Shown in pieces: positions 7,938 through 52,131 of a stretch of 64,000 bases of DNA; position 1 is the first letter of the stretch, and each line of letters begins with the position of its first letter. A program made the position numbers and the translations under genes. Location of the stretch: assembly GCA_903878275.1 (NCBI GenBank), contig CAIRHC010000007.1, positions 78,482 through 142,481 of the forward strand. The letters are read 5' to 3'. The stretch comes from Candidatus Vogelbacteria bacterium. GTDB taxonomy: Bacteria > Patescibacteriota > Minisyncoccia > Phycocordibacterales > XYD1-FULL-46-19. A model generated the notes under the pieces. The model ran no database searches. It was not told where the DNA came from and worked only from the letters and a program-made list of their open reading frames with translations.

Positions 7938-7947
7938 AGAGGGTAGG

Positions 7948-8112
7948 CATTTGAGTGTAACTTTTAAAACCACAGAAAAAGCCCCAGCGGGGCTTTTTCC
8001 TTTGCTTCAAGTCGCCATTTCGCCCTCGTTCGCCAAAGGCGAACAAAAACAAAGGGCGAAAACCATGCTGGCGATAATTCCGCAGAGGTTTTTAAAAGTT
8101 ACACTCAAATGC
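7948..8112. repeat. 25-bp inverted repeat (gcatttgagtgtaacttttaaaacc / ggtttttaaaagttacactcaaatgc) enclosing ~115 bp with nested hairpins
   Basis: arms read directly; the overlapping ORF 7951..8244 is probably spurious. Confidence 0.6.
7976..7998 (+). terminator. rho-independent terminator aaaaagccccagcggggcttttt after secY
   Basis: GC stem + T run. Confidence 0.6.
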
Positions 8113-8140
8113 CTTGTGGTGTGGGAAGGTTGGAGGCTAA

Positions 8141-8168
8141 AACCGCCCGAGGCAAGCCTCGGGCGGTT
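8141..8168. repeat. REP-like palindrome family 1 (aaccgcccgaggc-aa-gcctcgggcggtt)
   Basis: the same or near-identical palindrome recurs at 8879, 9763, 12655 and 19758; related ACCGCCC stems at 3361, 28789 and 39371. Confidence 0.6.
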
Positions 8169-8202
8169 TAGTTATCCACCGTTATCTTTCCAAAAATCTA
8201 GC

Positions 8203-8229
8203 GGGGGGGGGGGCTTTATTTGTTATACT
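8203..8229 (+). promoter_or_regulatory. poly-G(11) tract + extended -10 (TGtTATACT) promoter module
   Basis: G11 at 8203-8213; TATACT at 8224-8229; the module is conserved upstream of 9915 and 19947. Confidence 0.5.
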
Positions 8230-8294
8230 AAAATTAATTATTAGTTTTTTAACAATTAATCAGGTTGGTCTTTGAAAAGGCTGACCAAAAAATA

Positions 8295-8849
8295 ATGAAA
8301 AAATATCTTTTTGTCTCATTAGTTGTCGCTTCTTTTGTAATTTTGCCGGTGTTTGCCTCGGCACAAGCAGTTTCGTATCATCCAGCGGATACGAATAATA
8401 ATTATAAAATAGAGAAGGATGAATTGGTCTCATACGTTATCTCGTTTCTTTCGCCGACCGGTACCCTTGTTGGGGTGACTTTGTCTCAACTTGCACGAGT
8501 TGTTACTTTCTACAATGCTGGAGGTTATAAAGTTTATAATGGTACTAGCGATGGTTTTGCTCCTAGCCCAGCTTTTCACCCGGCTGATACCAATAAAAAC
8601 TATAAAATAGAATTATCCGAGCTGAATGCTTATCGAGAACTTTATAATCAAAAAATGATAACTTTAACTCAAGTATCAAGGGCAATTACTTTTTATAATG
8701 CCGGAGCTTATAAAGTTGATCCTAGTTCATCTGATGGGTTTGCTCCTCGACGAGTTGTGGTTAGCGAATCAGCCAATAGTGCTCAATTGGCAAGTATTGT
8801 GACCGCGCTGTCTTCTCTGTTGAATGAAATTAAGCAACTTGCAAAATAA
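8295..8849 (+). CDS. secreted protein with two ~65-aa tandem repeats (dockerin/EF-hand-like D.N.N.KIE..EL loops) and a conserved C-terminal amphipathic motif
   Basis: MKKYL signal peptide; repeats YHPADTNNNYKIEKDEL / FHPADTNKNYKIELSEL. Confidence 0.6.
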   Translation: MKKYLFVSLVVASFVILPVFASAQAVSYHPADTNNNYKIEKDELVSYVISFLSPTGTLVGVTLSQLARVVTFYNAGGYKVYNGTSDGFAPSPAFHPADTNKNYKIELSELNAYRELYNQKMITLTQVSRAITFYNAGAYKVDPSSSDGFAPRRVVVSESANSAQLASIVTALSSLLNEIKQLAK

Positions 8850-8878
8850 AACTAAATAAGATTAAGAAATGGAAAAAT

Positions 8879-8906
8879 AACCGCCCGAGGCAAGCCTCGG
8901 GCGGTT
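8879..8906. repeat. REP-like palindrome family 1 copy (likely terminator)
   Basis: aaccgcccgaggcaagcctcgggcggtt. Confidence 0.6.
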
Positions 8907-8940
8907 TGTGTTGCCAGAGCATTTTTTGTATACTAGAAAT

Positions 8941-9345
8941 ATGGAGATAACTCACCAACATAAGCTTGAAGTTGCTAAAATTGCCAAAAAATTCCAATTA
9001 AATCTAGTTGTTATTTTTGGTTCTTTTGCTAATGGAAAACAGCGAGAAGATAGCGATTTAGATATTGCCGTTTTGGGCGACAAAGAAATTTCTTTTAATG
9101 AGCAAATCGGCTTAATAAATGAATTATCTTTAATTTTTAATAAAAACATTGACTTGTCGGTGCTAAACCGAGCGAATCCACTACTACTTTTTCAAGTTAG
9201 CCAGAATTCGGTTATTATTTATGGCAGTCACGAAGAATTTTTGAAGTTTAAACTTTACGCTTTCAATGTCTACAATGATTATGCTCCCTATTTTGCGATG
9301 GAAAATAATTTGAATAAAAAAATAATCAATACTTATGCCAATTGA
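8941..9345 (+). CDS. minimal nucleotidyltransferase (MNT; MntA-like antitoxin)
   Basis: GSFANGK....DSDLD NTase motif. Confidence 0.75.
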   Translation: MEITHQHKLEVAKIAKKFQLNLVVIFGSFANGKQREDSDLDIAVLGDKEISFNEQIGLINELSLIFNKNIDLSVLNRANPLLLFQVSQNSVIIYGSHEEFLKFKLYAFNVYNDYAPYFAMENNLNKKIINTYAN

Positions 9346-9757
9346 TAAAAAACTTATAAGTCGAAAAATTACTTTGATCAACGGTGATTTAAAGAGTTTA
9401 AAAGGCTTAAACAAACTTTCACTCAAAATTTATTTAAGCAACGCGGAGTACGAAACACTGGCGGAAAGATATTTAGAAAGAATAATCGGGCGAATGATTG
9501 ATATTAATTATCATATTTTGTCAGAAAAAGAAAATGAAATGCCCACTGATTTTTACAGTTCTTTTGTTCTGTTGGGCAGAAAAAAGTATTTACCGATAAA
9601 ACTAGCTGAAACGATGGCTGGTTCGGCTGGGTTGCGGAATCGTTTGGCTCACGAGTATGATGAAATTGATGCTAAAAAAGTTTTCGGGGCGATCGATTCT
9701 TGCTTAAAAGATGTACCGAAATACCTAAAGAATATTGTTGCATCGCTGGGTTTGTAA
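9335..9757 (+). CDS. HEPN domain protein (DUF86/HepT-like toxin)
   Basis: RNRLAHEYDEID = HEPN R-x4-6-H motif; overlaps the MNT gene by 11 nt. Confidence 0.7.
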   Translation: MPIDKKLISRKITLINGDLKSLKGLNKLSLKIYLSNAEYETLAERYLERIIGRMIDINYHILSEKENEMPTDFYSSFVLLGRKKYLPIKLAETMAGSAGLRNRLAHEYDEIDAKKVFGAIDSCLKDVPKYLKNIVASLGL

Positions 9758-9762
9758 AAAAT

Positions 9763-9790
9763 AACCGCCCGAGGCTTGCCTCGGGCGGTT
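9763..9790. repeat. REP-like palindrome family 1 copy
   Basis: aaccgcccgaggcttgcctcgggcggtt. Confidence 0.6.
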
Positions 9791-9824
9791 TAGTTATCCA
9801 CCATTATTTCCCTAAAATCTATCA

Positions 9825-9851
9825 GGGGGGGGGGGCTTTATCTGATATACT
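9825..9851 (+). promoter_or_regulatory. poly-G(11) + TGaTATACT promoter module
   Basis: G11 at 9825-9835, then ctttatctgatatact. Confidence 0.5.
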
Positions 9852-9914
9852 GAATAAAATATTCGGCATTTTTAAGTTTTTAAAATTTATTATTAATAAC
9901 TAATTACAAAAATA

Positions 9915-12629
9915 ATGAAAAAATATCTTTTAGGTTTTTTACTCGTCGCTTCTTTGGTGGTGCTTCCGTCGGTGTCTCAAGCTGCTGAAGATTTAACGGT
10001 TACTTTGTATGGTTCGGGTTTGACGAAGGGTGTGGTCGGTGAGCCAGTGGTCCAAACCAGTTTTTCGGTCATGGTCACGCCAAACAACGGTGATGTTTAT
10101 TTGTATACGGGTGGGATATTAGGCATTCAACTTATTCAAGATGGAGGTCGCCCAATGCCCGATAATTGTACTTATAGCCAGAGCCTTACGGGGACATTGC
10201 CTATAGTTACGCATCCTCTAGGAAGCCAATATTATAAACTTGCCAGAGGCACCACTGCTCGTTTCAATGCATCTGTTTATTGTAAGATCAGTCAAATGCA
10301 TCCTGGTACTTATTATGGAAAACTTAGTCACGTAACATATAGCAAGACTGATCCTACGACAACAAACAGTTGGTATGATCAAAATATAGAAAACATCAGG
10401 ACACCAGCATCTATAAATATGTATGTTCTCGGCGAGACTGGTCCGTGGATTAGTTTGGCTGTGGCTAAGGCTGTTCAAGGTGGTTATGAGATTGTTTTAA
10501 CAGGAGAAAGATTGGGTCAGGTAAGAAGCGTGTTCCTGAACAACAAAACATACACTCCCTCAGCCAAACCTGGTGACTCTGTAAGTTTTTTTGCCAGTAT
10601 TGCTGATTTACCTGCCGGTAATTATCCTAGTTATGCTAATTTCTCTGGTGGTAAAAGTAATAATTTTTATCTGATGGTTGGAGGTAGTTCGATTGGAATT
10701 ATTTCACCCAATGGAGGGGAAAATTTAAATGAAGGTTTCGATTATCCTATAAGATGGACAAATTATAATATCACCTCGCCAACCGTTAACGTGGGAATTG
10801 AAAGATATGATAGTTCTGGGGCGTCTCAAGGTTCAACAAATATTATCACTGTCCCAACTACACAAAACAATTCCTATCTTTGGAGGGTTAATCCAAATTT
10901 AGCTTGGCAGGGAACACCGGTGAATCCTTCTTCTGGCCCTTTTAAGTATAAAATTTATGTTAATACTCCAGTCGGTGTTTCCCCAGTTGTTTCTGATTAT
11001 AGTGATAATTATTTTACTATAGCTGCATTAAATCCGACAGCCAAAGTCGCTGTCACCTCCCCAAAAGGAGGAGAGTCATTAGCTCAAGGCTCTACTTATA
11101 ATATTACGTGGAATGCTGCTAGTACTGTCACTAAAGTTGCCATCAGTCTTCTTAAGGGTGATATCGTTCGCTCTACTTCTATTATCAATCCGGTATCAGC
11201 TTCGGCGGGAACTTATGCTTGGAAAGTTGGAAACACCGCAGCGGGAATGATGGAGCCTGGGACTGATTATCGAATCAAAGTTTATGGTGTGACCGATGCC
11301 GGTGTCCCTATTGCGGATGCTAACAGTACCAGTAATTATTTCAGTATTGTGGTATCAGCACCAGCGACCGCTCCCACCATTAATAGTATTACTCCAAACA
11401 CCGCACCGATCGGAACTGCTTCTCGGGTAATCATCCGAGGCTTAAATTTCAGTATCGGTGATACTGTGTATCGTTTTGACGGAGAAATTCAAAGTCAACC
11501 ATTCTGTACTATCGGCGTTAACGCCAATGGGAACTACGACTGTCTTCCTGCTAAACTACCCGCTGGTGCGTACAAGCTTGCGGTGGTAAACTCTCGTGGG
11601 ACGAGCAATAAAGTGGATTTTACTTTTACTCCAGCTACGGCTATACCCACTCTTTCTGTGTCGCTAGATCCTTCTAACCCAACCAGACAAAACATCGGTG
11701 CGGGATCTATTGATCAAGTTTTTGTTAGAATTAAAGTTACCGCCGGATCGATGGATGTTAATAATCTTCAAGGAATCCAACTTGGTTCAGATTCTGCTAA
11801 TGCCAATGATTTTATAACCAACATAAAAGTTTTTGATGGGGCAAATCAGTTGGGTGGAACCATCTCTGGGTTGGACAATAATGGAAAAATTTTTTATAAA
11901 TGGACTTATCCTACTGGCGTAATGATTCCAGCTGGTACCTCTAAGATTCTGACCATTGTCGCCGAAGTGAAATCGACAGCTTCTAGCAATAGCAATTTTC
12001 GTTTAGGTATAACTGGCTGGAATTTTGTTTTTCCGGGGACTGCTGTGGAGCCGTTCGGGACACCGATATATGGTAATTATATGACGATAACGGCTTTGAC
12101 AGATCAGCCGACAATCACCGCAGTAGCAATGGCTTTACCAAATTGTTCTCTTGGTGCGATCAACTGTACTTGGCAGGCGGGGACAGATGGATATTATCTT
12201 TGGGGTTACCTTAATCCTAATACTCCGACCGGTAATACCGTCTCGGTTAGTCTTTGTGCCCCAGACGGAATAACCTGTACGATAGCAAAAGATGCTTCAC
12301 TTAAGGATCTCAACAAAGTACCGTCAAAAACTGGAACCGGATTAGGTAACCTGAATTCTGATAAGGCACCGCTTGGTCGTGGTGTTTTAACCAACCCAGA
12401 TCTGGTGGGAGGGAAGAATCCTGTTATCGTCAATAATCAGTCAACCTTAAAAATCTGCCCAACCAATGCCGACGGTTCGCCTGTGACTAGTGGTATTTGC
12501 AAGGTTAGTCCGGTTTTTACCATTACTCCGCCAGCTACCGCTAGTAATTCTCTGGTGAGTCGACAGTTGGCAAGTATTATTACAGTTTTGTCGGATTTAT
12601 TGGCGAAGATTCGGGGATTGGCTTGGTAA
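9915..12629 (+). CDS. large secreted multi-domain surface protein (Ig-like SPNGGE..W..ITW domains, IPT/TIG-like module)
   Basis: 904 aa, signal peptide MKKYLLGFLLVASLVVLPSVSQA; shares a ~260-nt module with the 19947 gene. Confidence 0.7.
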   Translation: MKKYLLGFLLVASLVVLPSVSQAAEDLTVTLYGSGLTKGVVGEPVVQTSFSVMVTPNNGDVYLYTGGILGIQLIQDGGRPMPDNCTYSQSLTGTLPIVTHPLGSQYYKLARGTTARFNASVYCKISQMHPGTYYGKLSHVTYSKTDPTTTNSWYDQNIENIRTPASINMYVLGETGPWISLAVAKAVQGGYEIVLTGERLGQVRSVFLNNKTYTPSAKPGDSVSFFASIADLPAGNYPSYANFSGGKSNNFYLMVGGSSIGIISPNGGENLNEGFDYPIRWTNYNITSPTVNVGIERYDSSGASQGSTNIITVPTTQNNSYLWRVNPNLAWQGTPVNPSSGPFKYKIYVNTPVGVSPVVSDYSDNYFTIAALNPTAKVAVTSPKGGESLAQGSTYNITWNAASTVTKVAISLLKGDIVRSTSIINPVSASAGTYAWKVGNTAAGMMEPGTDYRIKVYGVTDAGVPIADANSTSNYFSIVVSAPATAPTINSITPNTAPIGTASRVIIRGLNFSIGDTVYRFDGEIQSQPFCTIGVNANGNYDCLPAKLPAGAYKLAVVNSRGTSNKVDFTFTPATAIPTLSVSLDPSNPTRQNIGAGSIDQVFVRIKVTAGSMDVNNLQGIQLGSDSANANDFITNIKVFDGANQLGGTISGLDNNGKIFYKWTYPTGVMIPAGTSKILTIVAEVKSTASSNSNFRLGITGWNFVFPGTAVEPFGTPIYGNYMTITALTDQPTITAVAMALPNCSLGAINCTWQAGTDGYYLWGYLNPNTPTGNTVSVSLCAPDGITCTIAKDASLKDLNKVPSKTGTGLGNLNSDKAPLGRGVLTNPDLVGGKNPVIVNNQSTLKICPTNADGSPVTSGICKVSPVFTITPPATASNSLVSRQLASIITVLSDLLAKIRGLAW

Positions 12630-12654
12630 GAAAAATATAGATTAAGAAACGGGA

Positions 12655-12686
12655 AAACCCCGCCGAGGCAAGCCTCGGCGGGGTTT
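12655..12686. repeat. REP-like palindrome family 1 variant / terminator
   Basis: aaaaccccgccgaggcaagcctcggcggggtttt. Confidence 0.6.
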
Positions 12687-12720
12687 TGCTTTTTGGTTAT
12701 GTTGGCGTTATGATTAGGAA

Positions 12721-13326
12721 ATGGAAAATCTCAAAACCTTTATTTTTATTGGTCGGTCGGGAAGTGGCAAGGGCACTCAAGCCGAGCTTCTTGTAAATCA
12801 CTTCAAAGAAACCGGTGTGATCAATGACCAAAATCCACTTTTTTACCTAGAGACCGGTCATCAGTTTCGTGAATTTATTACCAGCACTAGTCATACTGGG
12901 CGCTTGGCAAAAGCCGTGATGGATAAGGCAGAGCGCCAGCCGGATTTTTTGGCAGTGTGGTTGTGGTCGCATATGTTTGTGGAAAATATTGTCGGTGATG
13001 AGCATTTGTTTTTGGATGGCACACCACGTTCACTTAATGAAGCGCGAACTCTCGACACAGCGATGACTTTTTATAGCCGAAAAAATATTTGTGTTGTTTA
13101 TTTGGACGTCTCACGTGAAGAATCAAAACGGCGAATGGAAGAGCGTAGTCGGGCTGATGATAAAAAAGTTTCGGATATTGAAACTCGCCTGAATTGGTTT
13201 GATACCGATGTCTTGCCGGCGGTAAAATTCTACGAAGATAATTCCCGTTATCATTTTTTGAAAATAAATGGCGAACAGACACGAGAGAAAATTCACGAAG
13301 ATATCGTTTCGGCGTTGCCAAAATAA
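12721..13326 (+). CDS. adk: adenylate kinase (short type)
   Basis: GRSGSGKGTQA P-loop, LDGTPR motif; the usual gene after secY. Confidence 0.7.
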   Translation: MENLKTFIFIGRSGSGKGTQAELLVNHFKETGVINDQNPLFYLETGHQFREFITSTSHTGRLAKAVMDKAERQPDFLAVWLWSHMFVENIVGDEHLFLDGTPRSLNEARTLDTAMTFYSRKNICVVYLDVSREESKRRMEERSRADDKKVSDIETRLNWFDTDVLPAVKFYEDNSRYHFLKINGEQTREKIHEDIVSALPK

Positions 13327-13331
13327 AATTT

Positions 13332-14096
13332 ATGATTAAATTAAAAACTCCCGAACAGATAGAAATTTTGCGGGCTGGAGGCGAAAGATTGGCTAAGATT
13401 TTGGCGACGGTGGCGCGCGAAGTCAAAGCTGGCGTGGAAACTCGAGCACTTGACGATTTGGCGCAAAAACTTATTTTGGCGGGAGGTGATAAGCCCGCTT
13501 TTTTGAATTACCGACCAGCTGGGTCACGTCTGGCCTATCCAGCCTCTCTTTGTGTTTCGATCAACGAAGAAATTGTTCACGGCATTCCGAGTAATCGGAA
13601 AATTGCCGACAGTGATGTGGTAAGTATCGACCTTGGTCTGATTCACAATGGAATGTACACCGATATGGCAGTGACAGTGGCTGTGGGCGAGGTAGATAAA
13701 ATAAAAAAGAAAATGATTGAAGTGGCGCGCGAGGCTCTGAACGTGGGAATTAAAGAGGCAAAAATTGGGGGACATATCGGTGATATTAGTCAGGCAATCG
13801 AAGATTTTATTATCGGTCAAGGTTTCGATGTTGTCTTAGACTTGGCTGGTCACGGTGTCGGTTTCCAAGCCCACGAAGATCCGTTTATTCCCAATTATGG
13901 TAAAAAAGGTAAAGGGGAAAAAATCGAAGAAGGTTTGGTTTTGGCGATTGAGCCGATGGTGACACTCGGTGATGGAAAAATAAAACTGGAAAAAGATGGT
14001 TTTACTTTTACGACTCGCAACAAAGAATGGTGCGCGCATTTTGAGCATACGATTGCTGTTACCAAAAATGGTCCAAAAATTTTAACAAAATTATAA
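13332..14096 (+). CDS. map: type I methionine aminopeptidase
   Basis: 254 aa; pita-bread fold motifs; position after adk. Confidence 0.88.
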   Translation: MIKLKTPEQIEILRAGGERLAKILATVAREVKAGVETRALDDLAQKLILAGGDKPAFLNYRPAGSRLAYPASLCVSINEEIVHGIPSNRKIADSDVVSIDLGLIHNGMYTDMAVTVAVGEVDKIKKKMIEVAREALNVGIKEAKIGGHIGDISQAIEDFIIGQGFDVVLDLAGHGVGFQAHEDPFIPNYGKKGKGEKIEEGLVLAIEPMVTLGDGKIKLEKDGFTFTTRNKEWCAHFEHTIAVTKNGPKILTKL

Positions 14097-14112
14097 GGAT
14101 TAAACTTGCTTA

Positions 14113-14140
14113 CCGGAATTTTGCCCAGGCAAAATTCCGG
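14113..14140. repeat. REP-like palindrome family 2 (ccggaattttgcc-cag-gcaaaattccgg)
   Basis: same palindrome family as six copies in the pilin locus. Confidence 0.6.
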
Positions 14141-14156
14141 CAGGTTAAATATTATT

Positions 14157-14714
14157 ATGATAAAAGAAGAACAAACACTGATTGTCGTCAAACCCGATGG
14201 CGTCAATCGTGGTCTGGTCGGGGAAATCATTGCTCGTTTTGAAAAAGCTAGGTTCAAAATTATAGCGTTGAAGATGGTCGAAGTCGAAAAAACTTTAGTG
14301 CAAAAACACTACAACCACGACGACGCTTGGATGGAAAAAGTCGGCGAGCGGACGCGGGAATTTTACGAAAAACATGGCGAAGACGAGGGTGAGAAAATTG
14401 GCAAGATGACAAATAAAGAAATTGGTAAGATGATTGAAGATTGGAGTTGCGACTATATGACAGACGGTCGAGTAGTAGCGGTGGTCTTGCAAGGTCACAA
14501 TGCCATTCAAACGGTCCGTAAAATGGTTGGCGCCACTTATCCGAGCGAAGCTTTGCCGGGAACCGTCCGTGGTGATTATTCAAACGAATCACCCCTCTCC
14601 GCCAACATCAACAAACGTTGTGCCCACAATATCATTCACGCCTCCGGCAATCCCGAAGAAGCCAAATTCGAAATTGACCTATGGTTTAAAAATGAAGAAA
14701 TTTGCCAGAAGTAA
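14157..14714 (+). CDS. ndk: nucleoside diphosphate kinase with ~45-aa internal insertion
   Basis: TLIVVKPDGV, NIIHAS motifs; start set after the palindrome. Confidence 0.75.
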   Translation: MIKEEQTLIVVKPDGVNRGLVGEIIARFEKARFKIIALKMVEVEKTLVQKHYNHDDAWMEKVGERTREFYEKHGEDEGEKIGKMTNKEIGKMIEDWSCDYMTDGRVVAVVLQGHNAIQTVRKMVGATYPSEALPGTVRGDYSNESPLSANINKRCAHNIIHASGNPEEAKFEIDLWFKNEEICQK

Positions 14715-14740
14715 AAGGTTTGAATTATAATAAAGGGTAG

Positions 14741-14872
14741 ATCGTTTGATATAGTATTTCTAGCACAAATCATTTTTAACGGGAGTTTAATTATTACGAC
14801 TGGCTTTGGTCATATCGTTTAGAACACCCACTTGGATTTCCTCTAGGAAATACTATTATCAAACGATCTAAC
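14741..14872. repeat. ~28-bp imperfect inverted repeat flanking ~75 bp (gtagatcgtttgatatagtatttctag ... ctaggaaatactattatcaaacgatctaac)
   Basis: read directly; possible structured RNA or miniature element. Confidence 0.55.
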
Positions 14873-14931
14873 AAAAAAGTCACTACGGTGGCTTTTTTGC
14901 TTCTTCGCTGGTTTTTCGTTAGACTTAATGT

Positions 14932-15372
14932 ATGATTTTGAAAGTTTTTATTGGTCTCGAAGCTGTTATTCTTCCGCTACTCGGTATTTTAAACTATCTG
15001 GCGTTTAAGAATTATTGGTATTGGCGCTTTCGCTGGTTTGATCAGCCGATGCATTTTCTTGGCGGGCTAGCCTTGGGGCTTTTTGGAATAATCATCTATT
15101 TGTATTTTTTCAGAAACAAAACCGGAACAAAAAAAATCGATTGGAAAATGTGGCTTGTTGGTTTGTTTCCCGTCGCGCTTGTTGGTATAATATGGGAAGG
15201 TCTGGAATTTAAAGCTGATAAAATTCATTTGGCGAATGTTTATTTTAAAACTTTCGGAATGGTTTATCACGGACTTGCCGAATCGCTAAAAGATCTCTTA
15301 TTTAATTTGATTGGGGCTTTAACGGCGATTCTATTATTTTTAATCATTACTTTATGCAAGAAAAAAAACTAA
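14932..15372 (+). CDS. hypothetical integral membrane protein
   Basis: 146 aa, 4 predicted TM helices. Confidence 0.5.
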   Translation: MILKVFIGLEAVILPLLGILNYLAFKNYWYWRFRWFDQPMHFLGGLALGLFGIIIYLYFFRNKTGTKKIDWKMWLVGLFPVALVGIIWEGLEFKADKIHLANVYFKTFGMVYHGLAESLKDLLFNLIGALTAILLFLIITLCKKKN

Positions 15373-16718
15373 AAATTACTTTTTGTGGTGGTGTCGGAGA
15401 GGTGACCGGCGCCAATTTTTTACTCGAAGCCGAAGGTCTACCCAAGATGCTTGTCGATTGTGGTTTGTTTCAGGCGGGCAAAACTTTTGAAGATAAAAAT
15501 AAAGATGATTTTTCGTATAATCCGTCAGAAGTGGAATATCTTTTTGTTACTCACGCGCACCTGGATCATATCGGGCGTATTCCGTTTTTAGTCCGCAAAG
15601 GCTTCCGCGGTAAAATTTACTCGACGCCACCGACCAGAGAGATCGCCGAATATGCCCTGATGGACAGCTTGCATTTGCTTCAAAAAGAAAACGATGGCGG
15701 GGAACCTTTTTTTGATGAAAAAGATGTAAAGCAGACAATGTCGCAATGGGAGACTGTCGGCTATCACGAGCCGATTAAAATTGGTGATTTGGTGGTTGTG
15801 ATGCGAGATGCCGGGCACATCTTAGGTTCGACAATGTATGAGTTTAATTTAAATGGTAAAAAATTAGTGTTTACTGGTGACCTCGGTAATTCACCTTCAC
15901 CGCTTTTGAAAGATACCGAACAAATTACCGACGCTGATTATCTGGTGATGGAAAGTGTCTATGGTGATCGCAATCACGAAGATCGCGCCCAACGCAAAAA
16001 TATTTTGGAAGATGTGATCGAAGATACTGTCCGTTCCAATGGTACCTTGATGATTCCGGCTTTTTCGATCGAGCGAACTCAAGAAATTTTATATGAAATC
16101 GAGGGGATGATGCAAAGCTCGCGGATTCCATTGGTGCCGGTCTTTCTTGATTCTCCTCTTGGTATCGAAATCACGGCGGTCTACAAAAAATACGCCGATT
16201 ACTTAAATGATGAGGTGCGAAAATTGATAAAAAGTGGTGATGAGATTTTCCAATTTCCGCAATTACACAAGACCTTAAGTACCGCCGAATCCAAAGCGAT
16301 TTTTAATGGCAACCCTAAAAAAATAATTATTGCTGGCTCGGGAATGTCCACTGGTGGGCGGATTTTGCACCACGAACGACATTATTTGGGTGACAAAAAT
16401 AGCACTTTACTTTTGATCGGTTATCAGGCGGTCGGTAGTTTGGGTCGAGTTATTCAAGATGGCGCCCGGACCGTGAAAATTATGGGCGAAGAGATCGCGG
16501 TTAATGCCAAAGTCGCAAACATTCACGGCTACTCGTCTCACAAAGATTCTGATCATTTGCTCGAATTTGTTCGCGACACCGCCGATACTGTGAAAAAAGT
16601 TTTTGTTTTAATGGGCGAACCGAAAGCGTCATTGTTTTTGGTTCAGCGTCTGCGAGATTATCTCGGAGTTGATAGCTTGGTGCCTGCCGAGGGGCAATCG
16701 ATCGAAATAAGTTTCTAA
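15354..16718 (+). CDS. MBL-fold beta-CASP ribonuclease (RNase J/CPSF-like)
   Basis: HAHLDH metallo-beta-lactamase motif; ~450-aa beta-CASP architecture. Confidence 0.75.
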   Translation: MQEKKLKITFCGGVGEVTGANFLLEAEGLPKMLVDCGLFQAGKTFEDKNKDDFSYNPSEVEYLFVTHAHLDHIGRIPFLVRKGFRGKIYSTPPTREIAEYALMDSLHLLQKENDGGEPFFDEKDVKQTMSQWETVGYHEPIKIGDLVVVMRDAGHILGSTMYEFNLNGKKLVFTGDLGNSPSPLLKDTEQITDADYLVMESVYGDRNHEDRAQRKNILEDVIEDTVRSNGTLMIPAFSIERTQEILYEIEGMMQSSRIPLVPVFLDSPLGIEITAVYKKYADYLNDEVRKLIKSGDEIFQFPQLHKTLSTAESKAIFNGNPKKIIIAGSGMSTGGRILHHERHYLGDKNSTLLLIGYQAVGSLGRVIQDGARTVKIMGEEIAVNAKVANIHGYSSHKDSDHLLEFVRDTADTVKKVFVLMGEPKASLFLVQRLRDYLGVDSLVPAEGQSIEISF

Positions 16719-16742
16719 ATAATGCAAAATTGAAAAATCAAA

Positions 16743-17135
16743 ATGGAAAATGACAAGGCAAAATGTCAAAATGATAAAGAAAAATTCAAAAACGAGTTTA
16801 AAAGAAGAATTTATAGTTGGGTATTGAGATTAATAAAGTTCATTGATTGCTTACCTAAGAATCAGAGCGCTAATGTCATAGGCAAACAATTGATAAGAAG
16901 TGGAACAAGTATTTTAGCTAATTACGTTTAGGCAAATTCTGCTAGCTCAAAGAAAGATTTTATAAATTTTTTTACTTACTCATTAAAATCAGCTAACGAA
17001 TCAAAAGTCTGGATATCCCTACTTAAAGATACTGGTCAAGGAGAGATAAATGAGTTAGAGTATTTATTGAAAGAGCTGGTTGAAATATCAAATGTGGTGG
17101 CGAGTAGCATATTAACAATGAAAGGGCGTAAGTAA
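16743..17135 (+). pseudogene. four-helix-bundle protein (23S rRNA IVS-protein family) interrupted by an in-frame TAG at 16929
   Basis: ..IGKQLIRSGTSILANYV-TAG-ANSASSKKDFINF..SANESKVWISLL matches the family across the stop. Confidence 0.6.
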
Positions 17136-17194
17136 TTTTATAATTTTGTAAATGTCATTTTTCATTTTGATTTTTACATTTTAAATTAATAAAT

Positions 17195-17800
17195 ATGAAT
17201 GATCTAAGAAACGAACATTTGAAAATAAAAATCTGTATTTCAGGTGCTGCCGACACAACCTTTTGTGGTGATGGTGCTTTGGAAATTGCCAAAGAGCTCG
17301 GTCGGGAGATTGCTCGGCAAGGGGCGACGATTGTGACCGGTGCCACGACTGGTTGGCCACTGTGGTCAGCAATGGGGGCTAAGGAAGAAGGGGGAATGTC
17401 TATTGGTTTGTCGCCCGCGGCGACCGAAAAAGAACACGTCGAGCAGTGGGGCTTACCGCTTGATTATCAAGATGTCATTATTTATACAGGGCAAGGCTTC
17501 CCCGGGCGAGATATTTTGCTGACTCGCACTTCCGATGCGGTGATTCTGGGTTGTGGTCGGATTGGCACGATTCACGAATTTACGGTGTCGTTTGAAGACG
17601 GCAAGCCGATCGGCATTTTGGAAGGTGCTTGGGAAATGGACGATACGTTAAAAGAAATTATTGCCCACGGTCATCGTCCAAATGATAAAATTATTTTTGA
17701 TAAAGATCCCAAAAAACTAGTGGAAAGAATTATCGAAATGGTTAAAAAAGACAAAGAGGCACTTGATAAAAAACCAGTTCAAACTTCAGCAGAAAAGTAA
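17195..17800 (+). CDS. LOG/TIGR00725-family Rossmann-fold protein
   Basis: ISGAAD..C....A.ELG..IA..G..IVTGATTG pattern. Confidence 0.6.
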   Translation: MNDLRNEHLKIKICISGAADTTFCGDGALEIAKELGREIARQGATIVTGATTGWPLWSAMGAKEEGGMSIGLSPAATEKEHVEQWGLPLDYQDVIIYTGQGFPGRDILLTRTSDAVILGCGRIGTIHEFTVSFEDGKPIGILEGAWEMDDTLKEIIAHGHRPNDKIIFDKDPKKLVERIIEMVKKDKEALDKKPVQTSAEK

Positions 17801-17883
17801 AGCTAACTAAATTTTACCTGTTGGTGGCGGTTGTGATATACTTAAACAAGTTTTTATTATCAATTATTAATTAATTTAAATAA

Positions 17884-19713
17884 ATGAAAAAATATCTCGT
17901 AGTTTTAATACTTGTCGGACTAATCATCTCGACTCCTTTGGCAACCCAAGCTTTTAGTGGAGGGGATCTCTCTTCGCTTATTACTAAAATAGAAAATCTT
18001 ATTGTTCAGTTGAAGCAAGTGCAACTGGCAGCGGTTTTTAGTAGAAACCGGGTAGTCAAAAAAGCCCCGACACCGACACCTACACCAGCCACGGGTACTT
18101 ATTATGTCGATTGTGCCAGTACTGCCAACGATAATAATGCTGGTACTAGTGCAACAAAGCCTTGGCATACCATCGGCCGTGCTTCTTGTATGAGTGATAA
18201 TCCGCAGTGTGGCTCTTTTAAACCTGGCGATACTATTTTGTTTAAACGGGGTTGTACCTGGACTGGCGAGCAATTAACCATCAACACGTCTGGCACTGCT
18301 GGTAAGCCAATTACTATCGCTGACTACGGCACTGGTAATTTGCCGATTATACAGGGCAGTGTCTCTGCTCCAGTTGGTGTTGGTAACGTAAGAGATATGA
18401 TTAATGTAAACGGCAAGAGCTATCTGACATTTCAAAATCTAGAAATAAGATATGCTGAAAATCCGGTGGTTGTAAATAATTCTAGCAATATTGTTTTAAA
18501 TAATCTTAATATTCATGACAATATCGGCTACGGTGCCATTCTTTTAACCGCTGATAGTCAGAGTACAACAAATAATACCGTAAGTAATACTACAATATAC
18601 AATACCAAAGCCAGTACCGAATCAGGACAGATTGGCGAAAATGGCGACCCCAATAGTCGTGGTCATGGAATTTTTATGTTTTCTAATTCAAGTCAGTCAT
18701 TGGTAAATAATAACATTTTTACCGGCAATACTATTTATAATAATGGTGAGTCTGGTATCGACATGATTTTGGGATCAAATAATCGCTTTAGTCAAAATAA
18801 AATTTATAACAATGGCAGTTCCGGCATTAGTTTGGTAAGTGTTAACGGTGAATCTAATGGTAATATTGTTGAGAACAATCTTGCTTACAATAATGGTCAA
18901 ACAACCGACGACGTTGCCGGTATCGATTTGCATCGTATCGGTAGTAATAATATTGTAAGGTATAATGCGGTTTATAATACAGTTGATGCTTTAATAGCGC
19001 CGACAATCCCAGCTCGTCCATGGAATAATGGTACAAAATACGGCAACGTTGGCATTAGATTTGATAGTAATACTGACCAGTCAGTACCGGTGATTGCTGC
19101 CACTGGTAATCAAGTTTATTACAATCTAATCGTTGGCGGCACTTATAATTTTATGAATATTCGCAATACCGGTCTATCATTCTTCAACAATATTCTACAT
19201 AACAGCTCATCGGATAATGTCCGAATTCATAACAGTAAAGATGTTCTTGATTTTGTTTTTAAGAATAATATTCTTACTCGTAATAGTAATAACGAAAACG
19301 TTTATTTTGTTCGCATTCAAGATGCTAAAAATGTTACTGATCCTGCTAAGTTCAACAATAATATGTATTATTCTTCGGTCGCTGGTGGCAAGTTCTGCGC
19401 GCTTACAGATAAAGATGCTTGGTGCTTAAATCCGGTTACGACGCTGGCTGATTGGCAAAGTCAAAGTGGCTTTGATAAAACAAATTCGTTAATAGCTAAT
19501 CCTCAATTTTCAGCAACTGCTCCGACAAGTGTTTCGGCAACTAATATTGAGAGCGCAGTCAGTAGCTTTAAACTAAACGCTACTTCACCAGCCTTGGATA
19601 AGGGTGCCACAGATGTGACTGCTGGGTTATCGTTAGCTCAAGATTATTTTAGTCAAAGCGTGCCGTACGGCAGTAGCTTACCAGATCTTGGCTTTAGCGA
19701 AATTGCTAAATAA
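17884..19713 (+). CDS. secreted right-handed beta-helix (pectate-lyase-fold) protein
   Basis: signal peptide; PTPTPTP linker; repeated NN..IxNN and IYNNG.SGI PbH1-like turns. Confidence 0.7.
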   Translation: MKKYLVVLILVGLIISTPLATQAFSGGDLSSLITKIENLIVQLKQVQLAAVFSRNRVVKKAPTPTPTPATGTYYVDCASTANDNNAGTSATKPWHTIGRASCMSDNPQCGSFKPGDTILFKRGCTWTGEQLTINTSGTAGKPITIADYGTGNLPIIQGSVSAPVGVGNVRDMINVNGKSYLTFQNLEIRYAENPVVVNNSSNIVLNNLNIHDNIGYGAILLTADSQSTTNNTVSNTTIYNTKASTESGQIGENGDPNSRGHGIFMFSNSSQSLVNNNIFTGNTIYNNGESGIDMILGSNNRFSQNKIYNNGSSGISLVSVNGESNGNIVENNLAYNNGQTTDDVAGIDLHRIGSNNIVRYNAVYNTVDALIAPTIPARPWNNGTKYGNVGIRFDSNTDQSVPVIAATGNQVYYNLIVGGTYNFMNIRNTGLSFFNNILHNSSSDNVRIHNSKDVLDFVFKNNILTRNSNNENVYFVRIQDAKNVTDPAKFNNNMYYSSVAGGKFCALTDKDAWCLNPVTTLADWQSQSGFDKTNSLIANPQFSATAPTSVSATNIESAVSSFKLNATSPALDKGATDVTAGLSLAQDYFSQSVPYGSSLPDLGFSEIAK

Positions 19714-19757
19714 TAATATTTAAATTTAGTTAAGATAAATAAAAGATTGTAAGAATA

Positions 19758-19791
19758 AATCCCGCCCGAGGCTAGTCCTCGGGCGGGATTT
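19758..19791. repeat. REP-like palindrome family 1 variant / terminator
   Basis: aaatcccgcccgaggctagtcctcgggcgggattt. Confidence 0.6.
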
Positions 19792-19875
19792 GCGGTGAAG
19801 CTAATTAGAATGGGGATAACCCGTGAGCCGTGCGAACGGAGCAGTCCCCCGAAGTGGGGATAACTAAATTATACT

Positions 19876-19901
19876 GGGGGGGGGGCTTTCTGTGATATAC
19901 T
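19876..19901 (+). promoter_or_regulatory. poly-G(10) + TGaTATACT promoter module
   Basis: G10 at 19876-19885, then ctttctgtgatatact. Confidence 0.5.
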
Positions 19902-19946
19902 TAAACAAGTTTTTATTATCAATTATTAGTTTAATTTATTTTATTT

Positions 19947-21779
19947 ATGAAAAAATATCTCGTAGCCTTGGCACTAGTCGGGCTAATCATCTCGACTCCT
20001 TTGGCAACCCAAGCTTTTAGTGGAGGGGATCTCTCTTCGCTTATTACTAAAATAGAAAACCTTATTACTCAATTAAAACAATTTCAATTGGGTGCGGTCG
20101 GAACTATCACTGGAGAATCAGCGATTTTAAGTGATTTTGTTTTTACTCCATCCTCACCGTTGGCGATCAACACTACTATCACTGGGAAAGTTAAAATTAC
20201 CAACAACGGCACTGTCGCTCTTCCTGGAGCTGGATATGGTTTGAGGGCGACAAATGTGACAGATTCTAAATTTCTATTTTCTGTTTTTGTGCCCACTATT
20301 CAGCCTGGAGCTTCGGTTGTTCTCCAAAATGGTATGACCTTCTCGTTCCCGACAGCTGGCTACAAAGATACTTTGTGGGAATTAATAAAGGTGGGCAGTA
20401 CTGTGCCTTTGACGACGACTCATCAATATCTCGTGGCGGGGGAAAGTGCCGGTCTTCTTTTTGATTCTTTCTCGCTGGCTTCTCCTGTTGCTCCAAATAC
20501 CAATGTCACCGCGAGTATCAAAGTGGTCAGTAATGGTACCGCTTTATCTGGCTATCAGCTCGTCGGAACGAGTGACACTGGTTTAGTTATCCCAACTATT
20601 ACTGATGTTTCTGTCCCCTCGGCTAGCCCGGCTGGTATTCAAATTAAAACTTTTACCACCCCACCATTTAATTCTGGTACATCCGGAAACTCGGTCATTA
20701 CTTGGAAATTAATTAAAGGCACTACGGTTTTGGGAAATGCGGTGACGGGGACTTTGATGGTGGGTCAAGCAACTCCTTCTATTGCTGTAATTTCCCCAAA
20801 TGGAGGAGAAAATTGGAAAGTGGGTGAAACACATAATATTACTTGGAAGACTAAAGACCTTCCGTCGTCAGATATAATTAATATTAATTTGTTACAGAAG
20901 AATAATGCAATGTTGTTTGTGGCCAATGCTATTAATTCCGGTTCTTATTCTTGGACGATCCCTGTTGAAATGCATGGTTTCAATTTAAATGAGGACGATA
21001 ATTATAAAATACAGCTTCTCGATAATAAGGCGCAACCTTCTTATTTTTCTGACTTGAGCGATACTTATTTTAGTATTTTGGAATCACCTACCACTCCCAC
21101 CGTCAATAGTATTACTCCAAACACCGCACCGATCGGAACTACTTCTCGAATAATAATCAGAGGTTTAAATTTCAGCATCGGTAGCACCATCTATACTTTT
21201 AATGGAGAGACGAAGGACAAACTGTTCTGTACTATCAGCGTCAACGCCAATGGGAACTATGATTGTCCTCTTCCTGCTACTTTTTCCGCTGGTGCATACA
21301 AACTTGCGGTGGTAAACTCTCGTGGGACGAGCAATAAGGTAGATTTTACGTTTACTTCTATTCCTGTTATTACTAATTTAACTGTGGCGTCTACCTCAGC
21401 TATTTTAGGTCAAGGTATTGGTAGTCCGGTCGATCGTTATCCTGTCACTTTTTCTTTTACTCTGGTTAATTCAGGCGATATTCCTTTGTATTTGTCGAAT
21501 AATCCTTCAATTGCATTTGCAACAGTGACATCTCCCGTAAATTCTCCATCTAGTGTTTCTTCTTTTCTTGCGTCTCTTTTACCGGGGGATTCACCTGGTG
21601 CATATGTTATACCGGCGAACGGACAGAGAAGATTCGTAGCTTCTGGACTGATTATGAGTTCTCTTCAAGGAGCAGGGTTACAAATTGTGAGTATATTTTA
21701 CGGTACTTCAGCCAGTGATTTGAGAGCCCTGAACATAGATGTTTCTCGTAAAGGTTTGGGTCAAATGGTGCTTAATTAG
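19947..21779 (+). CDS. secreted surface protein (paralogue of the 17884 N-terminus; Ig-like and IPT-like modules)
   Basis: first ~45 aa near-identical to the 17884 gene; IPT module ~85% nt identical to 11383-11640. Confidence 0.7.
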   Translation: MKKYLVALALVGLIISTPLATQAFSGGDLSSLITKIENLITQLKQFQLGAVGTITGESAILSDFVFTPSSPLAINTTITGKVKITNNGTVALPGAGYGLRATNVTDSKFLFSVFVPTIQPGASVVLQNGMTFSFPTAGYKDTLWELIKVGSTVPLTTTHQYLVAGESAGLLFDSFSLASPVAPNTNVTASIKVVSNGTALSGYQLVGTSDTGLVIPTITDVSVPSASPAGIQIKTFTTPPFNSGTSGNSVITWKLIKGTTVLGNAVTGTLMVGQATPSIAVISPNGGENWKVGETHNITWKTKDLPSSDIININLLQKNNAMLFVANAINSGSYSWTIPVEMHGFNLNEDDNYKIQLLDNKAQPSYFSDLSDTYFSILESPTTPTVNSITPNTAPIGTTSRIIIRGLNFSIGSTIYTFNGETKDKLFCTISVNANGNYDCPLPATFSAGAYKLAVVNSRGTSNKVDFTFTSIPVITNLTVASTSAILGQGIGSPVDRYPVTFSFTLVNSGDIPLYLSNNPSIAFATVTSPVNSPSSVSSFLASLLPGDSPGAYVIPANGQRRFVASGLIMSSLQGAGLQIVSIFYGTSASDLRALNIDVSRKGLGQMVLN

Positions 21780-21841
21780 GAGTGAGGTCGAACCTCACCT
21801 AGGGGATGTCGTTTGTGTTGTAATGTTTTATCTAAAAAATT

Positions 21842-22063
21842 ATGACTACTATCTCGGTACCGTTAAATGCTAAATTAGAAAAAGCTATTAACCATTTGAT
21901 TGAGTCTGGTTATGGCTCTAATAAAATCGAAGTTATTCATCGAGCTGTTATTAGCGCCTCAGAAGAAGAGGCTATCGGAATAGTTCTAAGAGCTAAAAAA
22001 GAGATATCTCTGGGGAGGGGCATAAAAGGTGGTTTAAAAGAATTGGTTAAAAAGTTTAAATAA
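21842..22063 (+). CDS. ribbon-helix-helix (CopG/ParD-like) small protein
   Basis: TISVPL beta-strand followed by two helices. Confidence 0.45.
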   Translation: MTTISVPLNAKLEKAINHLIESGYGSNKIEVIHRAVISASEEEAIGIVLRAKKEISLGRGIKGGLKELVKKFK

Positions 22064-22097
22064 CATTCTAACTCACCGAGAGGTGAATGATAAAACA

Positions 22098-22142: not shown

Positions 22143-22490
22143 TTAAGCTTTAGCTTGGCTGACGACTTGGGCGTAAACTTCGGGGTTGTTTTCAGCTAAT
22201 TCAGCAAGCATTTTGCGGTTTAGTCCGATATTTTTCTTCTTTAACATTCCAATAAATTTGCTGTAAGAAAGCTCGAATTCGGCAAGGCTGGCGCCGATCT
22301 TGATATTCCACAAACGACGAAAATCATTTTTCTTATCTCGGCGGTGGGCAAAAGCGTTGACACCAGCTTTTCGGATAGCAACTTTAGCTTCTTTTTCTTT
22401 GGTGCTTCGTCCGAAGCGATAACCCTTGGCGTCTTTCAAGACGTTGCGGCGGTGCTTCATTGAAATTGTTCCTCGTTTTACTCGGGTCAT
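22143..22490 (-). CDS. rplT: 50S ribosomal protein L20
   Basis: 115 aa; sequence recognisably L20; infC-rpmI-rplT order. Confidence 0.92.
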   Translation of the reverse strand: MTRVKRGTISMKHRRNVLKDAKGYRFGRSTKEKEAKVAIRKAGVNAFAHRRDKKNDFRRLWNIKIGASLAEFELSYSKFIGMLKKKNIGLNRKMLAELAENNPEVYAQVVSQAKA

Positions 22491-27624: not shown

Positions 27625-27848
27625 CAGAAATCTCCTTTTCTGTTTATGGTTAAGGTTCCACGGTAATTGTGGCACCGTACAAAAGAGGTGTCAATTAATT
27701 TTTTAAACCCGCCATTTTCTGGAAAACCTGTGGAAAACTTGTTGGTAACTCGGGATAAGTTTTGTCTGGTTTTTTATTTCGTCCGGTTTATAATGGTCAC
27801 ATTACTAGATAATTAAAAATAATCGATTATTAATTAACTTAAATAAAT

Positions 27849-51621: not shown

Positions 51622-52131
51622 ATGAAAAAATATTTAAATAAATCTAGTGGTTTTACTCTTATTGAACTCCTGGTCGTCATCGCCATCATCGGTATCCTGG
51701 CGGGGATTGTGCTTACTTCGCTATCGAGCGCTAGAAATAAAGCCAATGATGCTAAAATTATTTCACAACTTGGTCAGATCCGTTCAGCTGCCGAATTAAA
51801 TTTTAACCCCAATGATGGTCAAGGCGGCTGGGGCCAGGCAAGCTCTACCCAGACCTGTGGCAATGCGGCCGCACCTACAACACCCCCCACCGTAGCCCCA
51901 CTTTTTAAAAAGCCAGAGTTAGTCAAATTAATTTCTAGTACCGCAGCCCTCTCTAGTGGTGGGACATATTGTAACGTGATCCCTGCCTCGGGTACCGCCC
52001 GAGCTTCTTGGTTATTCGGAGCAACACTTGTTTCAGATACTAGTAAGACCTGGTGCGTTGATTCTTCGGGCAATTCAAAACTAATTACGCCAGGAACAAT
52101 CTTCAACACTGCAATGACTGTTTGCCCATAA
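51622..52131 (+). CDS. type IV pilin (prepilin, class III signal)
   Basis: MKKYLNKSSG|FTLIELLVVIAIIGILAGIV. Confidence 0.88.
   Translation: MKKYLNKSSGFTLIELLVVIAIIGILAGIVLTSLSSARNKANDAKIISQLGQIRSAAELNFNPNDGQGGWGQASSTQTCGNAAAPTTPPTVAPLFKKPELVKLISSTAALSSGGTYCNVIPASGTARASWLFGATLVSDTSKTWCVDSSGNSKLITPGTIFNTAMTVCP

Follow-up and report, generated by a model that had tools for sequence, protein, structure and literature searches.

How do genes for otherwise dissimilar secreted proteins come to share stretches of closely similar DNA, and could such sharing be a means of varying the cell surface? The question is raised by a stretch of 64,000 nucleotides from a Candidatus Vogelbacteria bacterium (contig CAIRHC010000007.1, positions 78,482 to 142,481), hereafter the 64-kb window, which is the DNA we analysed and to which counts of modules, motifs and tracts refer unless stated otherwise. 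It contains a family of four secreted-protein genes, 8295-8849, 9915-12629, 17884-19713 and 19947-21779, which we call by their start positions; like all features below for which no other orientation is given, they lie on the plus strand. The explanation that we favour, and to which as a whole we assign a probability of roughly 0.65, is that the four genes form a lineage-specific modular family of secreted cell-surface proteins, probably assembled from interchangeable parts, and that modules were copied between the paralogues by non-allelic homologous recombination. A cassette of promoter, signal peptide and helix would have been exchanged between the tandem genes 17884 and 19947, and a TIG domain between 9915 and 19947, 9.7 kb apart. 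Such exchange would be episodic and act on an evolutionary timescale, giving rise to new domain combinations rather than constituting a programmed switch. A first-pass annotation of this DNA had recognised three of the genes as related, which holds, but the family has four members, as 8295-8849 also belongs to it. This fourth member, a terminal helix motif, the island nature of the gene clusters and G10-11 tracts in the promoters are new beyond that annotation.

The first shared segment connects the tandem genes. Nucleotides 17804-18035 and 19861-20098 are 85% identical over 239 nt (E 1e-71), with about 80 nt shared upstream of the start codons and a coding part of 152-153 nt that is 88% identical and specifies 46 identical amino acids out of 51. 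The segment is thus real, as had been proposed, but longer than the originally estimated 100 nt or so of coding sequence. As a feature, its copy A (17804..18036) comprises a decayed G tract, a leader, the signal peptide (17884-17952) and the N-terminal helix (17959-18036), and copy B (19861..20099) the promoter, the leader, the signal peptide (19947-20015) and the helix (20022-20099). Two blocks within it are perfectly conserved, one of 38 nt in the promoter and 5' untranslated region (UTR; 17832-17869 = 19891-19928) and one of 77 nt in the coding part (17920-17996 = 19983-20059); outside the 77-nt block the module is 75% identical. Similarity breaks off after codon 51, and the following 60 codons match at random level. 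The bodies downstream have the divergent folds that had been proposed for them, a beta-helix (PF13229) in 17884 and Ig-like domains (PF10342 and PF01833) in 19947.

The second segment connects 9915 with 19947. Here, 11333-11630 and 21062-21356 are 81% identical over 302 nt (E 2e-76) with a single 3-nt indel, slightly below the roughly 85% first given for this IPT/TIG-like stretch; the TIG cassettes as a whole extend over 11333..11645 (copy A) and 21062..21371 (copy B). The two perfect blocks described before are present, 36 nt (11382-11417 = 21105-21140) and 35 nt (11577-11611 = 21303-21337) in length, but they do not anchor the ends of the segment and are simply its least-diverged patches. 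At the protein level, homology between the two genes covers 214 amino acids at 49% identity and includes a Kre9_KNH domain upstream of TIG, which is roughly 30% identical, judged by eye from the alignments, and undetectable at the DNA level. In both segments, perfect patches of 35-77 nt are thus embedded in modules that are otherwise about 75% identical, and the modules abut sequence that is either unrelated or saturated at silent sites. Comparison of the window with itself revealed exactly two copies of each module, each inside a complete gene with its own promoter.

Are these patterns the residue of selection on old paralogues, or of copying? If the former, purifying selection on signal peptide, helix and TIG would account for the similarity, with no recombination between the genes. 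In keeping with this, the boundaries of the shared segments fall on domain or module boundaries, and the ratio of nonsynonymous (dN) to synonymous (dS) divergence is low, at 0.25 for TIG (dS 0.54, dN 0.14) and 0.18 for the N-terminal module (dS 0.39, dN 0.07). Selection on the protein, however, leaves the silent sites unexplained, which are 78-80% identical in both modules when 39-41% is expected. Among amino-acid-identical codons, 56 of 72 in TIG are also codon-identical (29.8 expected from codon usage), as are 36 of 45 in the N-terminal module (17.5 expected). The Kre9 domain adjoining TIG, by comparison, is at background level, with a dS of 1.7, a dN of 0.9 and 14 codon-identical positions out of 27 (10.6 expected; TIG versus Kre9, Fisher p = 0.024), and a domain in this state directly beside TIG is likewise unaccounted for by old paralogy. 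The same applies to the perfect 38-nt block, which is non-coding, and to the 77-nt coding block without a single synonymous change. For the latter, P is about 1e-5 upon nucleotide shuffling, 1e-4 upon codon shuffling and 2e-3 when only third positions are considered; for the two TIG blocks, it is about 1e-3 with shuffled codons, 0.014 when synonymous changes alone are shuffled and 0.023 on third positions. Finally, in a HMMER pass over 1.84 billion representative proteins, the best non-self match of the 19947 TIG was the 9915 protein at 77% identity, and all others, and thus the closest TIG outside this genome, were at most 43% identical. The silent-site excess and the mutual nearest relationship together indicate that the TIG and N-terminal modules coalesce much more recently than the adjacent sequence, and within this lineage. 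The patchy identity is what one would expect partial duplication, with later gene conversion of short tracts, to leave behind. Domain shuffling or gene conversion, as the first-pass annotation had proposed, is therefore supported as history by the silent-site excess, the mutually nearest TIGs and the patchy identity (P about 1e-5 to 0.02), and we regard simple old paralogy as unlikely.

Several observations nonetheless weigh against copying as we picture it. The overall dS of 0.39-0.54 means that most of each shared module has not been recently homogenised, and exchange can therefore not have been frequent. As there are only two copies of each module, a constraint at the nucleotide level, for example an mRNA element, could also underlie a short perfect patch. 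A related locus, L004, encodes two tandem genes that share a C-terminal module at 62% amino-acid identity, in which silent sites match near chance (36 of 81, set against the 39-41% expected from the codon usage of the window); this fits old paralogy, and it follows that recent conversion is not general in the family. Moreover, the signal peptides and the surface location of the family proteins are predictions.

Programmed recombinational antigenic variation, as in pilE/pilS of Neisseria, vlsE of Borrelia or MgPa of Mycoplasma genitalium, would have the conserved blocks anchor frequent cassette exchange within a population. Patches of 35-77 nt with perfect identity could indeed support RecA-dependent exchange, the genes encode surface proteins and lie in variable islands, and a RecG gene is present in the window. 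The likeness to these systems also extends to segmental, non-reciprocal transfer of short tracts between paralogous surface sequences and to the resulting mosaic identity. They operate, however, with an expression site and an archive of silent cassettes, whereas here there is no archive and there are two copies per module, each in an intact gene with its own promoter and terminator; promoterless or truncated donor cassettes are absent from the window, which covers 64 kb of a 150-kb contig, and donor copies further away could exist. Copy divergence is also far above that of active systems (dS 0.4-0.5, 12-19% nucleotide difference), and the near-identical flanking segments of such systems are missing, as the modules are 81-88% identical with perfect identity confined to the patches. 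The proposal of the first-pass annotation that recombination serves as a device for antigenic or attachment variation thus finds no backing in these genes, and among the explanations weighed here a programmed system is the one to which we give the least credence. Exchange that is episodic and results in evolutionary shuffling rather than a switch is what we favour, because there are two copies of each module in intact genes, because these copies differ by 12-19%, and because the L004 genes lack a silent-site excess.

Three other mechanisms were rejected. An invertible promoter of the fimS or Bacteroides type would require flanking inverted repeats, which bracket none of the four promoters, and neither an invertase nor another site-specific recombinase domain was found in the window. 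A diversity-generating retroelement, already deemed unlikely before, is at odds with the mismatches, which affect all four bases (37 transitions, 16 transversions) and, as noted earlier, show no preference for adenine; nor was a reverse transcriptase found among the window's open reading frames (ORFs) of at least 300 aa, which were scanned with Pfam except for three type IV pilus genes and a ligase, recognised by eye only. Assembly chimerism was dismissed as well, since repeat copies that have diverged by 12-19% are not collapsible by an assembler.

What, then, are the interchangeable parts? All four products start with MKKYL, as part of a hydrophobic signal peptide whose cleavage site is of the AxA type (ending in ASAQA, VSQA or ATQA, with no cysteine), and all four genes are preceded by an extended -10 promoter, TGnTATACT. 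In our reading, every gene would be a unit complete in itself, with an AT-rich leader after the promoter and a hairpin terminator at its end. A further common part is a helix motif of about 20 residues, [QD]L[AS]S[IL][IV]T..[LI]..L[LI]..[IL], with a hydrophobic spacing of 3-4-3-4 over three heptads, which in a six-frame translation of the window is confined to the four family genes. It directly follows the signal peptide in 17884 and 19947 and makes up the last 23 residues in 8295 and 9915; in the AlphaFold model of the 19947 protein, residues 28-50 form a helix. No Pfam or NCBIfam model matches the motif. It does occur, at the N-terminus, the C-terminus or both, in the Parcubacteria Kre9_KNH-repeat proteins P0007, P0010, P0017, P0029, P0034 and P0038, and terminally in a 733-aa protein of locus L001, and this recurrence identifies it as a lineage-wide terminal module. 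The spread of the N-terminal module was judged by inspecting homologue matches. The terminal helix may serve docking or oligomerisation, and the proteins would mediate attachment or surface interactions of a probably episymbiotic cell.

Between these common ends, the four proteins differ. Gene 8295 encodes 184 aa from its ATG (the ORF opens with TTG at 8265), with the signal peptide at 8295-8369 and the C-terminal helix at 8778-8846. Its product also contains two repeats of about 66 aa (HPADTN.NYKIE..EL..Y ... TFYNAG.YKV ... SDGFAP) with EF-hand- or dockerin-like calcium-loop signatures; Pfam EF-hand matches are sub-threshold, and dockerin/EF-hand matches are also seen in the relatives P0017 and L011. 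The 904-aa product of 9915 has its signal peptide at 9915-9983, Kre9_KNH-like domains at 10686-11024 and 11058-11294, TIG at 11373-11627 and the C-terminal helix at 12558-12626. In the 609-aa product of 17884, signal peptide and helix motif are followed by a Pro/Thr linker and a right-handed beta-helix (18388-18909; PF13229, 39 bits, cut-off 25.9, 8e-10). The 610-aa product of 19947 starts with signal peptide and helix; after a stretch that is modelled poorly, it continues with Kre9_KNH (20793-21038) and TIG (21096-21353) and ends in a beta domain related to P0034. The TIG/IPT matches (PF01833) are marginal, at 23.8 bits in 9915 and 21.5 bits in 19947 against a cut-off of 20.9, and full-length (profile 1-84). 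Kre9_KNH (PF10342) scores 34.1 and 29.9 bits (cut-off 24.6) and is modelled at a pLDDT of 87-93; Kre9 and TIG apart, the 19947 protein is poorly modelled by AlphaFold (mean pLDDT 57). NCBIfam gave only sub-threshold 'choice-of-anchor' hints.

Genes 8295 and 9915 resemble each other at both ends and have unrelated interiors. Their 5' cassettes of hairpin, G tract, promoter, leader and signal peptide (8141-8338 and 9763-9958) are 77% identical over 202 nt, and their 3' cassettes consist of the helix motif, a 3' UTR and a terminator, the latter two (12633-12687 and 8854-8907) being 84% identical over 56 nt. The hairpin at 8140..8169 (no strand assigned) is palindromic and terminator-like; its exact core, CCGCCCGAGGCAAGCCTCGGGCGG, is present in two further copies, at 8879-8906 and, with an inverted loop, at 9763-9790. 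These three are the only matches in the window, with 0 expected by chance, and diverged variants follow the 9915 gene (12654-12687) and the 17884 gene (19758-19792). Two hairpin copies flank a toxin-antitoxin pair of an MNT-type nucleotidyltransferase (8908-9345; PF18765, 1e-20) and a HepT ribonuclease (9335-9757; PF01934, 1e-18).

The broader kinship of these proteins lies with the Kre9_KNH/TIG repeat proteins of Patescibacteria, which they resemble in domain composition, signal peptide, the order Kre9-then-TIG (found also in P0050 and P0010) and the terminal heptad helix. Many of those proteins carry PG_binding_1 after the N-terminal helix, whereas the family members lack this domain and have no close orthologues. 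The 9915, 17884 and 19947 proteins, the three that we looked up, are singletons in a collection of 5.8 billion proteins, where all three come from a single NCBI/ENA contig of 149,994 bp. Their best homologues are 31-37% identical over part of the length only, and a search of genome contigs with the 19947 protein returned only distant Kre9 relatives.

The window as a whole comprises a ribosomal-protein operon ending in SecY (6666-7937), followed by adk, map, ndk, a beta-CASP metallo-beta-lactamase gene and a SLOG gene; rplT/infC run in the opposite direction, and the window also has a tmRNA, pilins and genes for type IV pili. The closest relative of its methionine aminopeptidase is 83% identical, and the relatives are labelled Candidatus Vogelbacteria, Paceibacterota or Patescibacteria; the source is a member of the Parcubacteria (Paceibacteria, near Vogelbacteria) within the candidate phyla radiation. 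Against this backbone, the family genes occupy two islands. Island 1 (8138..12700, 4.6 kb), with two family genes and the MNT/HepT pair, lies between secY and adk (12721-13326); island 2 (17801..22090, 4.3 kb) lies between the SLOG gene (17195-17800) and rplT (22143-22490, minus strand) and has a 73-aa ORF without a Pfam match at its distal end (21842..22062). Exactly the same gene order is found in L008, L009 and L010 (SecY about 71%, L20 77-79% identical), in which the secY-adk gap measures 82-112 nt, compared to 4783 nt in the window, and the SLOG-rplT gap 60-67 nt, compared to 4342 nt. In L006, with a SecY that is 87% identical, the secY-adk gap is 382 nt, and DNA homology with the window extends to about 8137 and stops at the first hairpin. 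As both junctions are near-empty in relatives of the same gene order, the clusters are insertions into conserved synteny. Comparison with related genomes, which the first-pass annotation had called for, revealed that the content upstream of rplT indeed differs. In L004 (L20 74% identical), two different tandem MKKYL genes are situated immediately upstream of rplT on the opposite strand, arranged as in island 2, in a contig that covers the rplT side only and ends before the neighbour on the SLOG side. The product of the first, P0034, can be aligned to the 19947 protein over the Kre9 and C-terminal domains, but the place of TIG is taken by another Ig-like domain.

Insertions of this kind could have been acquired horizontally as ready-made mosaics, for instance by natural transformation, such that the similarity between modules would be the history of a donor lineage. 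Both clusters are insertions relative to the relatives and include a toxin-antitoxin pair, type IV pilus and ComF-like functions are encoded, and among 5.8 billion sequences the family proteins have no close homologue. However, the GC content of the islands (0.37-0.42) is the same as in the rest of the window, an AT-rich leader of the family recurs at gene 27849, and MKKYL together with the leader motif ATTATCAA recurs in the L004 pair upstream of rplT; from these recurrences, the family appears native to the lineage. Even if true, a horizontal origin would move the recombination to another genome and not remove it. We consider it very unlikely as a substitute for copying between paralogues in this lineage.

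If copying between the genes is slow, is there anything in them that might vary quickly? Three of the four promoters contain a long G tract: G11 in 8295 (8203..8213; TG 8221-8222, TATACT 8224-8229), G11 in 9915 (9825..9835; TG 9843-9844, TATACT 9846-9851) and G10 in 19947 (19876..19885; TG 19893-19894, TATACT 19896-19901), each on the sense strand and ending 10 nt upstream of the -10 hexamer. At the homologous position, 17884 has a decayed tract, TGTTGGTGGCGG (TG 17834-17835, TATACT 17837-17842). Promoter homopolymer tracts are an established cause of phase variation (reviewed in PMC11868660 and PMC1891110), and repeat tracts in promoters change promoter efficiency via the spacing of promoter elements (PMC5084427); our literature search found no paper tying Patescibacteria or Parcubacteria to promoter-homopolymer phase variation. 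With G11, G11 and G10, three of the family genes have tracts of the length typical of contingency loci, that is, homopolymers of about 8-9 nt or more in the promoter of a surface gene. If the tract grew or shrank by strand slippage, the geometry of the promoter would change, and with it the amount of each surface protein, and expression of 17884, with its decayed tract, would be fixed. As a device for fast variation, the G tracts seem more plausible than recombination, and the G10-11 tracts of the three genes would be the more likely source of rapid, reversible change.

The tracts might also have no role in variation and be ordinary elements, structural or of the promoter, or what a promoter duplication has left behind as neutral sequence. 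The three are, after all, homologues that belong to a single promoter module, the window shows no logic of -35 spacing, and the sole length variation seen is G10 versus G11 between paralogous promoters. Yet the G10-11 runs have persisted intact, although their flanks (ungapped, 30 nt) are only 67-73% identical downstream and 27-60% upstream, and one copy has visibly decayed. By chance, G/C runs of at least 8 are expected about once per 220 kb, and the three promoter tracts are the only ones in the 64 kb. Similar genes of two other organisms, moreover, have independent tracts in spacers of optimal length. We looked at six further surface-protein genes of Parcubacteria-type relatives, chosen without regard to homopolymers, and two of the six have tracts of their own. 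In L005 (2682-2690), the arrangement is TTGACA-tcggcga-G9-t-TATTCT, ending 8 nt before the ATG of P0029, and in L013 (3593-3600) it is TTGACA-gtgtttctt-G8-TATTAT, upstream of the real start of P0017. Each of the two sits within a spacer of exactly 17 nt, both genes encode the helix motif, and neither promoter is homologous to those of the window. The loci compared with the window, about 156 kb in total, contain no other run of at least 8, save for L003, which was itself picked by its tract pattern. Lack of any role in variation thus seems to us doubtful, if by no means far-fetched. The same minimal length variation, however, also tells against a switching function, as does the lack of tracts in the relatives L004, L012 and L014. 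In addition, the window promoters have no recognisable -35 element, the tract taking the place of the -35 region and not of the spacer; they look -35-independent, which makes the effect of tract length on transcription uncertain.

Tentatively, and with rather less confidence than we would need to call it probable, we propose that Parcubacteria use poly-G promoter tracts as contingency loci alongside short-tract conversion, in a two-tier system of surface variation. The tracts would switch or tune genes for surface proteins with a terminal helix, and conversion between paralogues would reshuffle leader and Ig-like modules. The closest parallel is the Vlp family of Mycoplasma hyorhinis, reportedly described by Rosengarten and Wise in 1990/1991, along with similar mycoplasma families. 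There, too, a host-dependent bacterium with a small genome has paralogous surface-protein genes with their own promoters, a conserved 5' region of promoter and signal peptide followed by divergent mature regions, and a homopolymer tract in the promoter of each gene. The Vlp proteins are, however, lipoproteins with a lipobox cysteine, in contrast to the cysteine-free signal peptides ending in AxA found here; their tract is a poly(A) between -35 and -10 instead of a poly(G) upstream of an extended -10; their mature regions are tandem repeats and not folded Ig-like or beta-helix domains; and there is no sequence homology. The promoter contingency loci of Neisseria and Bordetella (the poly-G/C spacers of porA and opc, the C-stretch of fim) likewise have G/C tracts of at least 9 in or near the core promoter of outer-surface genes. 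The L005 and L013 promoters resemble porA in having the tract inside a 17-nt spacer between -35 and -10, whereas in the window it stands in place of the -35 region, in a promoter of the extended -10 type. Those loci also belong to mucosal pathogens in which tract switching takes place, and the candidate loci of the window to an uncultivated environmental member of the Parcubacteria.

Some further observations concern the promoters of surface genes. A metagenome scan with the promoter pattern G8-CTTTNTNTGNTATACT gave one match, in L003, where about 0.5 are expected by chance, and we have not used it as evidence. The match (11036-11061, minus strand) reads G10-CTTTCTTTGTTATACT and is located about 110 nt upstream of the gene for a secreted repeat protein of 682 aa that has a membrane anchor at its C-terminus; the organism is unrelated and, by eye, apparently of higher GC. 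Because the pattern itself led to the match, it may be a chance one, although its position and orientation are suggestive. Just upstream of the G10 tract of 19947, a direct repeat, GGGGATAAC, is found at 19812-19820 and 19857-19865 (region 19811-19866) and could be a regulator binding site. Genes of the sigma-70 family (r2 and r4) lie within about 2 kb of helix-motif surface genes in L005 (566-1072), L012 (6382-7170) and L014 (5039-5536), a hint that some lineages control the transcription of such genes by dedicated means; those of L005 and L014, which are short, resemble the extracytoplasmic function type, and none was seen near the window islands. The AT-rich leader mentioned above, ATTATTAATTAAYTTAAATAAATATGAA, is 86% identical between 17856-17894 and 27819-27860. 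At the latter position it belongs to a secreted-protein gene (27849-28766) without a Pfam match, G tract or helix motif, and exported proteins of this genome may have it in common as a leader or translation-initiation element.

Other repeats are found close to the islands and elsewhere in the window. An element of about 170 nt follows secY in the window (7945-8114), in L006 (5317-5512) and in L007 (33-228), and is 95% conserved between the window and the close relative L006/L007. Its ends are inverted at long range (GAGTGTAACTTTTAAAACC ... GGTTTTTAAAAGTTACACTC), and a terminator-like hairpin lies within it (7975-7999). Rfam gave no match to it and none in the region; the secY-adk gaps of L008 and L010 are too short to contain it. 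It could be an insertion resembling a miniature inverted-repeat transposable element (MITE) or a structured RNA that has gone unannotated. A 476-nt insert (16719-17194) separates the metallo-beta-lactamase gene from the SLOG gene, where relatives have a gap of about 30 nt; it is bounded by 36-nt inverted repeats (16720-16755 and 17153-17188) and contains, by eye, an apparent stop-interrupted remnant of an ORF for a small helical protein. The motif of these terminal repeats, GAAAAATCAAAATGGAAAATGACA, is found again between genes of L006, L007, L008 and L010 and therefore behaves as a lineage-wide MITE-like or repetitive extragenic palindromic (REP)-like repeat. Finally, the window has a second paralogous surface family with a conserved 5' module: three pilin genes (51622-52131, 52171-52671 and 54585-55163) are nearly identical in an N-terminal segment, GFTLIELLVVIAIIGILAGIVLTSLS, beyond which they differ; the gene for an IS200-like Y1 transposase (52813-53469) lies between them.

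In culture, bacteria of the candidate phyla radiation are found attached to other microbes, and by what means they recognise a host and stay on it is poorly understood. The mosaicism described here is real, and gene conversion and domain shuffling are supported as its history; contingency control through poly-G promoter tracts would be the more interesting possibility. If the tracts are stable, what remains is ordinary domain shuffling among bacterial surface proteins. If they are not, two-tier variation of a kind known from mycoplasmas and mucosal pathogens might also exist in uncultivated, ultra-small bacteria of the environment. The helix of about 20 residues in terminal heptads, placed at either end of many Parcubacteria surface proteins, may be a lineage-wide signal for docking or assembly. 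A family that was inserted as islands, rebuilt by module exchange and perhaps switched by tracts would, if all this is true, be a candidate for host-range bet-hedging or phage evasion.

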